A stretch of DNA of 64,000 nucleotides from Escherichia coli. Its GTDB lineage: Bacteria; Pseudomonadota; Gammaproteobacteria; Enterobacterales; Enterobacteriaceae. The notes below the pieces were generated by a model that searched no databases, was not told the DNA's origin, and worked only from the letters and a program-made list of their open reading frames with translations. The stretch lies in NCBI RefSeq assembly GCF_001677475.2, contig NZ_CP015229.1; one strand, written 5' to 3'. Made by a program: the position numbers and the translations under genes. Position 1 is the stretch's first letter, and every line of letters begins with the position of its first letter. Of this stretch, positions 32,980-36,792 are shown in pieces.

Positions 32980-35900
32980 GTGGCGATGATAAATTTAAGT
33001 AAGGAAGCAACGGTGGGTAAAGCATTAACCCCTATTGCTATACTTATGATGTTGTCTTTTCCTGTAGCTTCTCAAGCGGCGGGATTAGTCATAAAAAATG
33101 GAACGGTATATAACGCCAATGGTGTGCCAGTCGTTGACATCAACAAACCTAACGGTAGCGGTTTATCTCATAATATCTGGGATAACCTAAACGTTGATAA
33201 AAATGGTGTCGTTTTCAATAACAGCGCTAATGAATCCAGTACTTCACTTGCCGGAAATATTCAGGGAAACAGTAATCTGACCTCCGGGTCGGCGAAGGTG
33301 ATCCTGAATGAGGTTACTTCCAAAAATCCTTCAACCATTAATGGGATGATGGAAGTTGCAGGGGATAAAGCGGATCTGATTATTGCCAACCCGAATGGTA
33401 TTACTGTAAACGGTGGTGGTTCAATCAATACAGGTAAACTGACCTTAACCACCGGGACGCCGGATATCCAGGATGACAAGCTGGCCGGTTATTCCGTGAA
33501 CGGCGGTACCATTACGCTCGGTAAACTGGATAACGCCAGCCCGACAGAAATTCTGTCCCGTAACGTGGTGGTTAACGGCAAAGTGTCTGCCGATGAGCTG
33601 AACGTTGTTGCTGGCAATAACTATGTTAACGCCGCAGGCCAGGTGACCGGTAGCGTATCCGCCACGGGTTCCCGTAACGGTTACAGCGTAGATGTTGCCA
33701 AACTGGGCGGAATGTATGCGAACAAAATCAGTCTGGTTAGCACCGAGAAAGGTGTAGGGGTTCGCAACCTCGGCGTTATTGCTGGGGGTGTTAATGGTGT
33801 CAGCATCGATTCCAAAGGTAACCTGTTAAATAGCAATGCCCAGATTCAGTCTGCAAGCACGATCAACCTGACGACAAATGGTACTCTGGATAACACCACC
33901 GGTACGGTGACATCTGTAGGCACTATCTCGCTCAATACCAACAAGAATACTATCGTGAATACTCGTGCGGGTAACATCTCTACGATGGGCGATATCTACG
34001 TTAACAGCGGTACGATTGACAATACCAACGGCAAGCTTGCGGCAGCAGGTATGCTGGCGGTCGATACCAATAACGCCACGCTGATTAACTCTGGTAAAGG
34101 GAGTTCTGTCGGGATTGAAGCGGGTATCGTGGCGCTGAAAACCGGGACGCTCAACAACAGCAATGGTCAGATTCGAGGCGGTTATGTGGGGCTTGAATCA
34201 GGCGCGTTGAATAACAACAACGGTGATATTCAGACCACTGGCGACATCGCCATTATCAGTAACGGTAATGTGGATAACAACAAAGGTCTGATCCGTTCGT
34301 CCACCGGGCATATCGTTATTGGTGCGGCAGGTAGCGTAAATAATGGTTCAACCAAAACCGCCGATACCGGCAGTTCTGACTCTCTGGGCATTATTGCAGA
34401 TACCGGCGTAGAAATTGGTGCGAACAACATCAATAACAACGGCGGACAGATTGCGTCTAATGGCAACGTCTCCCTGTCAAGTTACAGCACGGTCGACGAT
34501 TATGCGGGCAAAATTCTGTCCAACAGCAAAGTGATTATCAAGGGAAGCTCACTGCGTAACGATACCGGGGGGATCAGCGGTAAGCAGGGTATTGAAGTCG
34601 CCGTTGGCGGCAGCCTGACCAATAACATTGGCGTGATCAGCTCTGAAGAGGGTGATATCTCCCTGTTAGCCAACTCAGTGGACAACCACGGCGGCTTCAT
34701 GATGGGGCAGAACATCACGATGGAGTCGATGTCTGGCGTTAATAACAACACCGCGCTGATCGTGGCCAGCAAAAAACTGAAGATAAACGCGTTCGGTAAT
34801 ATTGAAAACCGCGATGGCAATAACTTCGGTAATGCTTATGGTCTGTACTTCGGCATGCCTCAGCAAACGGGTGGAATGGTCGGCAAGGAAGGCATCGAGC
34901 TTTCCGGGCAGAACATCTATAACAACAACAGTCGTTTCATCGCTGAGGATGGTCCTCTGACTCTGCAGGCGCAGAACACGTTCGACAACACGCGTGCTCT
35001 GGTCACCAGCGGGTCGGATGCCTCTATTCAGGTTGGCGGAACGTATTACAACAACTACGCTACCACCTGGAGTGCGGGCAACCTGGATATCGACGCGACC
35101 ACGCTGCAAAACAGCAGCAGCGGTACGATGATCGATAACAATGCGACCGGGTTCATAGCATCTGATAAAAATCTGTCACTGGAAGTGGTGAATAGCCTTA
35201 CCAACTACGGCTGGATCAGCGGTAAAGGCGATGTTGATGTCACGGTGAATAACGGCAACCTGTACAACCGCAATACTATTGCGGCTGAAAAGGGGCTGGA
35301 TATTGCCGCGTTGAACGGTATTGAAAACTGGAAGGATATTTCTGCTGGCGGCGACCTGACGATGAACACCAATCGCCATGTGACCAACAACTCCAACAGC
35401 AATATGGTGGGGCAGAATATCGTTATTAACGCGGTTAACGATATCAACAACCGTGGCAACATTGTCAGTGATTTTGACCTGAACGTGACAACCAAAGGCA
35501 ACCTGTATAACTATCTCTATATGGTGGGTTATGGGGATGTCGCATTAACGGCAAATAGCGTGGCGAACAATAACGCGACCATCGAAGCGACAGGCGATCT
35601 GATTATCGATTCGAAGGGCAACGTGGGCAATTACCACGGTAAGCTGCATGCGTTGAACGGCGTGTTGTCTGTAAAAGGCAGCAATCTGAACAACGACTAC
35701 GGTGAAATTCGTGGTTATGACGACGTCACGCTGGCACTGACGGGCAACTACGACAGCTTTAAGGGCTCGCTGACCTCTGAAACGGGCGACGTGACTTTGA
35801 CGGCGAACATCATAGACAACGCCTATGGTCTGATTGCCGGTGAGAATGTTTCTGTCGATGCTAGATCGACGATTTACAACAACACTGCGCTGATCGCGGC

Positions 35901-36792
35901 GAATAAAAAGCTGGTTATTAACGCTGGCGGCAACCTCGAAAACCGCGACGGGAATAACTTCCTGCGTAATAACGGCGCGCTATTTGGGATCACCGACAAC
36001 GTTGGCGGCATCGTAGGTAAAGAAGGTGTCACGCTTTCTGCTCAGAACGTCTACAACAATAACAGCAGCATCATCGCTGAAAATGGTCCGCTTAATCTGC
36101 TGTCCAGGGGAACGTTGGATAATACCCGCGCGCTCCTCAGCAGTGGGGCTGATGCCATCATCCGTGCGGCAGGGACGTTCTACAACAACTATGCCACCAC
36201 TTACAGCGCCGGTAATCTCGACGTTTATGCGGCGTCGTTGAGTAACGCCAGTGATGGTCGTCTGGAAGACAATACCTCCACGGGTGTGATTGCGTCTGAC
36301 AAAAACCTGGATCTGACCGTGGATAACAGCGTCACGAACTATGGTTGGATCAGCGGTAAAGGGGATGTGCATTTCAATGTTCTGAAAGGCACGCTGTATA
36401 ACCGTAATGCCATCGCAGCGGGCAACGCGCTGACCATTAATGCCCTGAACGGTGTTGAGAACTTTAAAGACATTGTGGCGGGAACTGCGCTGACTATTGA
36501 TACGCAGAAGTATGTTACCAACAACAGCAACAGTAATATGTTGGGGCAAACCATCGCGATCAATGCCGTGAATGACATTAATAACCGTGGAAATATTGTG
36601 GGTGATTATTCTCTGGGGGTTAAAACCACCGGTAATATTTATAACTACCTCAATATGCTGAGTTATGGTGTCGCTGGCGTATCGGCAAATAAGGTTACGA
36701 ATAGCGGTAAAAACGCTGTTCTCGGTGGCTTCTACGGTTTAGCGTTAGAAGCAAACGAAACTGATAACACCGGTACTATTGTCGGCATGTAA
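32980..36792 (+). CDS. Two-partner secretion exoprotein (TpsA; filamentous haemagglutinin/haemolysin-like) with TPS domain
   Basis: 1270-aa ORF; extended signal peptide, TPS-domain hallmark ANPNGITVNGG, Asn/Gly-rich beta-helix repeats, large internal tandem duplication. Confidence 0.85.
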   Translation: MAMINLSKEATVGKALTPIAILMMLSFPVASQAAGLVIKNGTVYNANGVPVVDINKPNGSGLSHNIWDNLNVDKNGVVFNNSANESSTSLAGNIQGNSNLTSGSAKVILNEVTSKNPSTINGMMEVAGDKADLIIANPNGITVNGGGSINTGKLTLTTGTPDIQDDKLAGYSVNGGTITLGKLDNASPTEILSRNVVVNGKVSADELNVVAGNNYVNAAGQVTGSVSATGSRNGYSVDVAKLGGMYANKISLVSTEKGVGVRNLGVIAGGVNGVSIDSKGNLLNSNAQIQSASTINLTTNGTLDNTTGTVTSVGTISLNTNKNTIVNTRAGNISTMGDIYVNSGTIDNTNGKLAAAGMLAVDTNNATLINSGKGSSVGIEAGIVALKTGTLNNSNGQIRGGYVGLESGALNNNNGDIQTTGDIAIISNGNVDNNKGLIRSSTGHIVIGAAGSVNNGSTKTADTGSSDSLGIIADTGVEIGANNINNNGGQIASNGNVSLSSYSTVDDYAGKILSNSKVIIKGSSLRNDTGGISGKQGIEVAVGGSLTNNIGVISSEEGDISLLANSVDNHGGFMMGQNITMESMSGVNNNTALIVASKKLKINAFGNIENRDGNNFGNAYGLYFGMPQQTGGMVGKEGIELSGQNIYNNNSRFIAEDGPLTLQAQNTFDNTRALVTSGSDASIQVGGTYYNNYATTWSAGNLDIDATTLQNSSSGTMIDNNATGFIASDKNLSLEVVNSLTNYGWISGKGDVDVTVNNGNLYNRNTIAAEKGLDIAALNGIENWKDISAGGDLTMNTNRHVTNNSNSNMVGQNIVINAVNDINNRGNIVSDFDLNVTTKGNLYNYLYMVGYGDVALTANSVANNNATIEATGDLIIDSKGNVGNYHGKLHALNGVLSVKGSNLNNDYGEIRGYDDVTLALTGNYDSFKGSLTSETGDVTLTANIIDNAYGLIAGENVSVDARSTIYNNTALIAANKKLVINAGGNLENRDGNNFLRNNGALFGITDNVGGIVGKEGVTLSAQNVYNNNSSIIAENGPLNLLSRGTLDNTRALLSSGADAIIRAAGTFYNNYATTYSAGNLDVYAASLSNASDGRLEDNTSTGVIASDKNLDLTVDNSVTNYGWISGKGDVHFNVLKGTLYNRNAIAAGNALTINALNGVENFKDIVAGTALTIDTQKYVTNNSNSNMLGQTIAINAVNDINNRGNIVGDYSLGVKTTGNIYNYLNMLSYGVAGVSANKVTNSGKNAVLGGFYGLALEANETDNTGTIVGM

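Follow-up and report, generated by a model that had tools for sequence, protein, structure and literature searches.

The window analyzed here is a 64,000-nt stretch of Escherichia coli DNA (NZ_CP015229.1). It carries a two-partner secretion (TPS) gene pair:

32980-36792, plus strand: otpA-type tpsA gene, 1270 aa plus stop, GTG start (ORF list and translation)
33103-33825, plus strand: TPS secretion domain, aa 42-282 (Pfam PF05860, 142.6 bits, E 2.7e-41)
36881-38500, plus strand: otpB-type tpsB transporter gene, 539 aa (Pfam ShlB, E 5e-70, with POTRA_2 and POTRA_3; RefSeq annotation)

RefSeq likewise annotates the 3813-nt coding sequence at 32980-36792. Its product combines the N-terminal TPS secretion domain, accompanied in Pfam by a Fil_haemagg match, with a passenger whose predicted structure is β-helical, and the adjoining gene encodes the cognate TpsB, an Omp85-type transporter with POTRA domains. 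An ANPNGI motif is present in the translation.

Sequence and neighborhood identify the gene pair as otpAB, a two-partner secretion locus that belongs to island OI-47 / S-loop71 of E. coli. OtpA and OtpB of E. coli O157:H7 are attributed to Choi, Dawson & Bernstein (J Bacteriol 2007), as cited in later literature; otpAB corresponds to ECs1282-1283, which adjoin the loc6 fimbriae on an island that also bears GrvA. The present OtpA shares 98.1% amino acid identity with the gene at the same locus of O157:H7 FRIK944, the length being 1270 aa and the order tpsA then tpsB in both, and otpA is 97.1% identical to O157:H7 alleles in nucleotides. High identity to ECs1282 goes together with flanking genes that agree: loc6-type fimbriae lie upstream and acpS/SDR/FabZ-like genes downstream, as on the O157:H7 island. 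Nothing essential differs between the two loci; the present allele comes from a non-O157 background. The locus occurs at 95-99% identity in 382 E. coli genomes, O157:H7 strains among them, and core genes of the source strain are about 98.3% identical to complete genomes.

A TPS review reports TpsB-dependent secretion for the 98%-identical O157:H7 OtpAB. In the same review OtpA is entered with function unknown, which leaves the name "adhesin", used in the original prediction, unsupported. In OtpA, Pfam recognized only TPS and Fil_haemagg, with no adhesion-type or toxin-type C-terminal domain, and an Rfam scan of the whole window gave no match in or beside otpA. A CdiA-type contact-dependent inhibition toxin was rejected because Pfam detected no pretoxin (VENN) or toxin domain; the C terminus of OtpA still lies within the β-helix module, and it is tpsB, not an immunity gene, that follows. 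The adhesin EtpA is part of an etpBAC locus with a glycosyltransferase. A glycosyltransferase gene of that type is absent here, and EtpA (PDB 8vba, 8cpk), which enterotoxigenic E. coli secretes as a TpsA adhesin, has 16% sequence identity to OtpA and gave no significant Foldseek match (E 0.11). Its adhesin function cannot be transferred to OtpA.

Downstream, otpAB is always followed by acpS, KR, DH, ACP, a GcvT-like gene, KS-KS and KS. The same cluster also includes a MacB-type ABC transporter, a LolA-like gene and an acyltransferase.

OtpA contains two homologous modules, drawn here with a unit phase that is an arbitrary choice:

34540-35673, plus strand: copy 1 (U1) of the 378-aa module, aa 521-898; core 34540-35559, remainder diverged linker (diagonal +1134 nt)
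35674-36789, plus strand: copy 2 (U2) of the module, aa 899-1270; core 35674-36693; carries the family's conserved C-terminal tail

The original prediction, a tandem duplication of about 1.1 kb inside tpsA, was correct in its main point: the duplication is real, in frame and exactly 1134 nt long. The self dot-plot that had been proposed as a check shows an extended diagonal between the blocks, and in the protein plot it is the single dominant one, at +378 aa (+1134 nt). A direct-repeat search returned three families, and in each the repeat starts lie exactly 1134 nt apart. When aa 1-898 were aligned with aa 899-1270 by Smith-Waterman, the score was 1042, compared with 113±10 (maximum 139) for 100 shuffles. 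Over 367 columns the copies have 57% protein identity and just two 2-aa gaps. The motifs quoted for the repeat were all recovered, ALIVASKK... at 34753 and ALIAANKK... at 35887, NYGWISGKGDV at 35197 and 36331, and INAVNDINNRGNIV at 35425 and 36559. Of the proposed bounds, 34650-36792, the end coincides with the stop codon, but the start falls about 110 nt inside the true left edge. A profile-level scan with 21 orthologues places the homologous core at aa ~520-860 versus ~898-1238 (nt ~34540-35559 versus ~35674-36693), with aa 860-898 as a diverged linker between the module cores. The exact ends of the duplication are not recoverable, the linker being diverged and the E. coli clade departing from the others by one 21-22-aa coil at the copy boundary. 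The literature searched, a scope outside which the original 2007 description falls, makes no mention of an internal duplication in OtpA.

OtpA is also repetitive at a finer scale. Short-period autocorrelation peaks at 20-21, 41-42, 60-62, 81-82 and 101-102 aa, and the unit has matches of about 27% identity along many stretches of distant giant TpsA proteins. Both facts would suit a 378-aa periodicity that is only the generic ~20-aa TpsA coil repeat seen at a chance multiple, rather than a discrete duplication. Three observations led us to reject this explanation, which has almost no chance of being right. The +378 diagonal holds 259 identities, and no other listed offset exceeds 155; its best 100-aa window holds 71, compared with 28 at the next best offset. 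The alignment is essentially gap-free over 344 residues at 57-60% identity. Finally, the nonperiodic landmarks, namely a helix insert, NYGWISGKGD and NNSNSNM, recur exactly once per unit. Our analysis shows that the repeat originated by in-frame tandem duplication, followed by divergence. It is useful to contrast this architecture with that of FhaB/FHA and other large TpsA proteins (Pfam Fil_haemagg). These share with OtpA the TPS domain and a β-helix of ~20-residue repeats, and proteins of 2000-4700 aa give distant matches to it. However, FHA-type repeats are arrays of 19-20-residue units, whereas the OtpA repeat is a higher-order, single duplication of an ~18-coil, 378-aa block in a much shorter protein.

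The AlphaFold2 model of aa 480-1270 (pLDDT 96, pTM 0.83) is all-β except for one short helix per copy. DSSP places these helices at H134-142 and H512-520 of the model, exactly 378 residues apart:

34816-34842, plus strand: short α-helix of the extra-helical insert in U1, aa 613-621; U2 counterpart at 35950-35976, aa 991-999

The U1 helix lies within a U1-specific, nearly invariant motif, YFGMPQQxGGMxGKEG. The predicted structure shows the OtpA passenger as one long right-handed β-helix of ~20.5-residue coils. At the canonical rise of 4.8 Å per coil, the duplication would add ~17-18 coils, or roughly 8-9 nm of rod, and would provide the surface-exposed insert twice, the second time in a diverged form.

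The OtpA repeat is a feature of the protein and does not consist of near-identical DNA: the copies are 62.5% identical in DNA and 40% identical at third codon positions, exact identity is limited to runs of 10-17 nt, and the longest in-register run is 17 nt in three independent alleles. Because the copies are so diverged, Tandem Repeats Finder reported no repeat in 30000-40000. For the same reason, 62% DNA identity with a longest shared run of 17 nt, the copies are a poor substrate for RecA recombination. The assembly collapse that had been feared is likewise implausible, and cannot occur when genomes are assembled from k-mers or reads. The repeat does no harm to annotation or assembly, since short reads can be placed in it without ambiguity, and the gene model of 1270 aa is right.

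Copy number is practically uniform. Comparison of tpsA length across strains found full-length otpA in 379 of the 381 complete E. coli genomes with the gene, and each full-length record listed spans 3813 nt; of the two exceptions, at least one is an IS1 truncation. When complete E. coli genomes were queried with a one-copy allele, no finished genome was found to carry the deletion, because every listed match fell in two pieces spanning ~3813 nt. There was no three-copy form among the 120 best homologue clusters.

Three one-copy alleles, P0007 (892 aa), P0008 (892 aa) and P0036 (893 aa), are known from short-read or draft assemblies only (SRR24033007, GCA_031590855.1, ERR10491137, SRR29490122) and occur in 0 of the 381 complete genomes; 892 equals 1270 − 378. 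Each is a chimera that begins as copy 1 and continues as copy 2; the in-register junction differs among the three but always lies at a short conserved patch:

34802-34827, plus strand: conserved DNA patch ENRDGNNF, P0007 crossover zone; partner 35936-35961, 11-13-nt in-register exact match
35000-35025, plus strand: patch around TSGADA, P0008 crossover zone; partner 36134-36159
35212-35228, plus strand: longest exact match TGGATCAGCGGTAAAGG (WISGKG), P0036 crossover zone; partner 36346-36362

Informative sites switch from one copy to the other at 34791/35925 or just downstream in P0007 (junction about 34791-34827), between 35010 and 35014 in P0008 (copy 2 equivalent 36144-36148), and at 35211-35229 in P0036. 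We take these alleles as real because the copies share no k-mer long enough for misassembly and because the same junction recurs across isolates and assemblers. P0008 was found in two isolates 4 SNPs apart over 10.6 kb, from different assembly pipelines, and P0007 in two separate sequencing runs. Through rare deletions at short conserved patches, otpA has returned to the one-module length of its ancestor on at least three separate occasions, probably by microhomology-mediated or homeologous recombination.

Such alleles could also be read as signs of an active, recombination-prone tandem repeat, a contingency-type locus at which OtpA changes length frequently and which is often misassembled. 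Other coil-sized indels in the family, of 21-22, 41, 85 and 163 aa, point the same way. Two of these are in finished genomes, a deletion of 41 aa in P0006 and one of 163 aa in P0038, the 1129-aa form, and the 85-aa deletion (P0034) is on a 540-kb contig; length in the wider family varies by whole numbers of coils. However, near-identical DNA copies with long exact homology, as in a variable-number repeat, are not what otpA has (62.5%, 17 nt in all three independent alleles, and blank output from Tandem Repeats Finder), nor does its copy number commonly vary among strains, with 379 of 381 complete genomes full length and neither deletion nor triplication among the listed matches. The deletion clusters hold one member sequence each, compared with 1460 in the two-copy cluster P0001, and the two copies have not been homogenized. 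The reading is already largely refuted, and we consider it quite improbable. Length change by recombination, as originally predicted, does occur in the form of three chimeric alleles, but copy number is practically invariant. Our data show a repeat that is stable in practice, with just 10-17 nt of exact identity.

The one-copy alleles bear on a further question, namely whether the ~890-aa form might be ancestral in E. coli and the two-module form recent within the species. Single-module proteins are the family majority, and 892 aa is a typical length for them. The 892-aa alleles are nevertheless mosaics, with copy 1 bases up to a sharp breakpoint and copy 2 bases beyond it (436-458 of 482 informative sites); in 60-nt windows, identity is mostly 92-97% with copy 1 and, past the breakpoint, 90-100% with copy 2, and the breakpoints differ between lineages. 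The mosaic pattern refutes the E. coli one-module form as the ancestral allele. A recent duplication would moreover have left near-identical copies, whereas those observed are 62% identical with saturated synonymous sites (pS 0.75), and Enterobacter and Aeromonas also have the two-module form, with orthologous U1 and U2 clades. This scenario is very hard to sustain.

The wider family offers better candidates for the ancestral state. Among the 120 best homologue clusters, length classes comprise two-module proteins of 1205-1301 aa, a form of 1129 aa, and single-module proteins of ~815-935 aa. The last (Klebsiella, Kosakonia, Pantoea/Winslowiella, Mixta, Rahnella, Leclercia) have an N-terminal 520 aa, a module and a C-terminal tail as in OtpA, but one module in place of two, and at least one of them lies in the same tpsB-acpS-KR-DH-ACP-GCV_T-KS neighborhood. 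In a neighbor-joining tree of the units, drawn without support values, the U1s group together and the U2s group together, with no homogenization between them. Units from the more distant single-module genera (P0046-P0114) lie outside the joint U1/U2 clade, and those of the closest single-module proteins (P0041, P0043, P0045) branch at the base of this clade, toward U2. Over the last ~50 alignment columns, these closest relatives match U2 at 0.68-0.74 versus 0.29-0.43 for U1, and more distant ones match U2 at 0.38-0.46 versus 0.26-0.33. Chimerism was sought in P0041, P0043, P0045, P0047, P0053 and P0058, all from other genera; their N-terminal part is U1-like and their tail U2-like, with no sharp copy switch. 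Since only this expected bias is present, we regard the single-module proteins of other genera as ancestral-like and not as deletion derivatives. They represent the pre-duplication architecture.

Both module copies are under purifying selection. In three pairwise comparisons, dN/dS was 0.07-0.13 for U1 and 0.12-0.17 for U2; for the N-terminal 520 aa, two comparisons gave 0.02-0.03 and the third a value near zero. The core comprises 344 positions: 90 have the same conserved residue in both copies, 5 are conserved with different residues, 53 are conserved in U1 alone and 71 in U2 alone.

We favor, with a probability of roughly 85%, an otpAB locus of OI-47 that carries an old duplication with diverged copies, stable as a repeat and rarely reversed by deletion at short patches. 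The C-terminal module of an ~890-aa single-module protein duplicated in tandem and in frame in an ancestor common to the E. coli, Enterobacter and Aeromonas alleles. The copies then diverged under purifying selection, without homogenization, to 57% protein and 62% DNA identity. Copy 1 has kept the ancestral N-terminal part of the module, including the helix/loop insert YFGMPQQxGGMxGKEG, and copy 2 the ancestral C-terminal tail. The duplication is old and almost fixed; it is real but fairly ordinary.

OtpAB could conceivably be the secretion arm of a lipid/polyketide-like biosynthesis and export cluster rather than a stand-alone adhesin system, with the duplicated module binding or displaying the product, although we hold this to be unlikely. 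If it were true, the invariant YFGMPQQxGGMxGKEG loop of copy 1 and the diverged loop of copy 2 would lie in the part that binds or displays the product, and the duplication and its rare reversions would alter valency or reach.

The locus may be relevant in other ways. First, it provides a clean, datable case of how a β-helical secreted protein grows: an ~18-coil block duplicated once, asymmetric divergence and occasional coil-sized deletions. Second, it defines natural one-module and two-module OtpA alleles, which are open to experimental comparison in the EHEC OI-47 protein. Finally, the more interesting lead is a TPS pair genetically locked to a lipid/polyketide-like cluster across genera. 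E. coli, Enterobacter, Aeromonas and a Winslowiella-type genome all retain the linkage of otpAB to the cluster, and the upstream neighbors vary.

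The repeat lies wholly within the first gene of what is, by domain content and gene order, a predicted two-partner secretion (TPS) pair, tpsA followed by tpsB:

32980-36792, plus strand: otpA (tpsA), 1270 aa, GTG start, containing the whole repeat
OtpA aa 42-282: TPS secretion domain (Pfam, E 2.7e-41)
36881-38500: otpB (tpsB), ShlB/FhaC-type transporter with POTRA domains (Pfam)

Pfam also matched hemagglutinin-type repeats in OtpA. The host is E. coli, since putA-putP, core genes in the leftmost part of the window, reach up to 98.3% identity with E. coli genomes. Of 5426 complete E. 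coli genomes, 382 carry tpsAB at 95–99% identity, O157:H7 and O55:H7 strains among them, and OtpA from the window shares 98.1% identity with the O157:H7 allele. Genes for a GGDEF protein, an EAL protein, and a ToxR-like regulator are found upstream together with an operon for chaperone-usher fimbriae; acpS, SDR, FabZ-like, ACP, and ketosynthase genes lie downstream. This neighborhood agrees with island OI-47/S-loop71, which carries grvA and otpAB (ECs1282-1283) adjoining the loc6 fimbriae, and the tpsA gene is therefore otpA. A TPS review gives the function of OtpA as unknown; the label of adhesin attached to it in the original prediction is unproven.

That prediction, of a tandem duplication inside tpsA, is borne out, and the label of duplication is correct. 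A repeat search found three direct-repeat families whose copies are spaced exactly 1134 nt apart. In a self-comparison of OtpA, an offset of 378 aa was dominant, with 259 identities overall and 71 in the best 100-residue window; other offsets gave at most 28 identities per 100 residues. Local alignment of aa 1-898 with aa 899-1270 scored 1042, against 113±10 for shuffled sequence, and covered 367 columns at 57% identity with only two 2-residue gaps. A profile scan with 21 two-module orthologues placed clear homology between aa ~520-~860 and aa ~898-~1238, with aa 860-898 a diverged linker. The motifs quoted for the two blocks are present where they had been placed.

The copies, U1 (aa 521-898) and U2 (aa 899-1270), are 62.5% identical as DNA (70%, 77%, and 40% at first, second, and third codon positions), and their synonymous differences are saturated (proportion 0.75). 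The longest in-register exact run common to both is 17 nt, the same maximum as in two further alleles, that of O157:H7 included, and Tandem Repeats Finder detected no repeat at otpA. The 120 best homologue clusters fall into three length classes: a two-module class of 1205–1301 aa (E. coli, Enterobacter mori, E. soli, E. sichuanensis, and Aeromonas veronii); a class of 1129 aa that is without 163 aa and has E. bugandensis among its hosts; and the majority, a single-module class of ~815–935 aa (Klebsiella, Kosakonia, Pantoea/Winslowiella, Mixta, Rahnella, and Leclercia). In a neighbor-joining tree of units, first copies form one clade and second copies another, neither clade includes units of the more distant single-module genera, and the closest single-module proteins (clusters P0041, P0043, and P0045) are basal on the U2 side. 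The separation of U1 and U2 thus argues for a single duplication that predates the divergence of these alleles, without later homogenization. In single-module outgroups the N-terminal part of the unit is like U1 and the tail like U2, as is expected where U2 alone stays the true C terminus. At the boundary of the copies (35647-35673, aa ~892-899), all two-module orthologues outside the E. coli clade (Enterobacter, Aeromonas, and clusters P0005 and P0026) have one extra coil of 21–22 aa; one coil was probably lost here in the E. coli clade.

The homologue search also returned three rare one-module clusters. P0007 and P0008 are 892 aa each (1270 minus 378), with 88–91% overall identity; P0036, from a more distant lineage, is 893 aa with 80% identity. 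Mapped on the window via sites that differ between the copies, each carries copy 1 bases, a single sharp switch, and then copy 2 bases, and the switch site differs in each:

about 34791-34827: P0007 switch, ENRDGNNF patch
35010-35014: P0008 switch, TSGADA patch
35211-35229: P0036 switch, 17-nt WISGKG patch

By this pattern the three are deletion derivatives of the two-module gene rather than ancestral forms. Known from short-read data only, these alleles are very probably real, because P0008 recurs in two assemblies, one from NCBI and one a Logan assembly of another run (4 SNPs apart in 10.6 kb), P0007 was seen in two separate runs, the P0007 and P0008 lineages differ by 3.5%, and no k-mer common to both copies is long enough for such joins. 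No one-module allele was found in the complete E. coli genomes searched. Recombination between the copies, named in the original prediction as able to vary the length of the protein, has therefore happened, as the one-module chimeras attest, but it is rare and occurs at microhomologies. In the P0007 lineage, tpsB is broken into two ORFs of 378 and 152 aa (5466-7085 in retrieved locus L004, likewise in L005), and the GcvT-like gene is split too (L004 9135-10294, likewise in L005); the whole locus may be decaying there.

Full-length otpA in one aligned piece was found in 379 of the 381 complete-genome records with the gene, and among the full-length records listed the gene always spans 3813 nt; one of the other two has an IS1-associated truncation. 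Among the top homologues there was no three-module protein (~1650 aa). Assembly collapse, a hazard raised with the duplication, is no realistic risk. In E. coli SCU-316 (NZ_CP054371.1), an IS1 transposase adjoins a 5′-truncated otpA remnant, the last 596 nt only (locus L011, 3289-4596); the fimbrial operon is absent, pseudogene annotations are attached to grvA, fidL, and the ACP gene, and the island is thus decaying in this strain.

Further size differences in the family are of 21–22, 41, 85, and 163 residues, equal to 1, 2, 4, and 8 coils, so OtpA-family length shifts by whole coils. Two of these come from finished genomes: P0006 is missing 41 aa, and P0038, the 1129-aa form, is missing 163 aa. 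P0034, with its 85-aa deletion, is on a 540-kb contig. Searched exhaustively with phmmer against 1.84 billion representative proteins, the unit had only 85 matches at E ≤ 0.001, 13 of them reaching E ≤ 1e-30; the remote matches are giant TpsA proteins, aligned over many stretches at about 27% identity. The 378-aa module is confined to the small OtpA family, yet made of generic hemagglutinin-type coils.

Between E. coli alleles, dN/dS is 0.07–0.13 for U1 and 0.12–0.17 for U2; over the N-terminal 520 aa, two of the three pairwise comparisons gave 0.02–0.03 and the remaining one about zero. Both copies are under constraint, less tightly than the secretion domain. Among 344 core positions in 21 orthologues, both copies conserve the same residue at 90 and different residues at only 5; another 53 are conserved in U1 only and 71 in U2 only. 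The nearly invariant YFGMPQQxGGMxGKEG belongs to the positions conserved in U1 only. An AlphaFold2 model of aa 480-1270, built from a 21-sequence alignment (mean pLDDT 96, pTM 0.83), is a continuous all-β solenoid with one short α-helix per copy in the YFGMPQQ region; the two helices, residues 134-142 and 512-520 of the model, are separated by exactly 378 residues. Because sequence autocorrelation peaks at 20–21 residues and multiples, the unit comprises ~17–18 coils plus inserts. A canonical β-helix rises 4.8 Å per coil, at which the duplication would lengthen the rod by roughly 8–9 nm. The helix/loop insert is a candidate functional site:

34816-34875 (aa 613-632): copy 1 insert, YFGMPQQxGGMxGKEG, a short helix/loop protruding from the β-helix
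35950-36009 (aa 991-1010): copy 2 insert, only GGxxGKEG retained

The repeat is an ordinary type of event, duplication of a domain block in a β-helical secreted protein encoded by a known gene; its single old origin, asymmetric divergence, and three independent reversions were not found described in the accessible literature.

E. coli, Aeromonas veronii, Enterobacter mori, and a single-module Winslowiella-type contig share the order tpsA-tpsB-acpS-KR-DH-ACP-GcvT-like-KS-KS-KS, but the genes upstream of tpsA vary among these four loci. The conserved cluster spans, with coordinates local to each retrieved locus, are:

window 32980-53309
L008 9001-21867
L009 9001-21873
L010 9001-20544

The genes of the cluster encode SDR/KR, a FabA/ApeI-like dehydratase, a GcvT-like aminomethyltransferase, a fused KS-KS (852 aa), and KS, and in the window it extends to an ABC ATPase and FtsX/MacB permease (MacB-type ABC transporter), a LolA-like protein, and an acyltransferase. 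A functional tie of OtpAB to the upstream fimbriae is reported to have been proposed earlier. The conserved linkage suggests instead that OtpAB is functionally tied to the lipid or polyketide-like cluster. A tRNA gene (53506-53590, minus strand) immediately follows the cluster's last gene and is probably an island edge or integration site.

The 1.39 kb upstream of otpA (31590-32979) is without an ORF of at least 80 aa and has no Rfam match; comparably long intervals, of about 1.95 kb in L008 and about 1.66 kb in L010, lie before the gene there. This interval could hold a long leader or regulatory region. Elsewhere in the window, Rfam placed two sRNAs above gathering score, both unrelated to the repeat:

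11851-12044, minus strand: Ysr251 (antisense sRNA family), 192.8 bits
59191-59282, minus strand: ES056 sRNA, 119.7 bits
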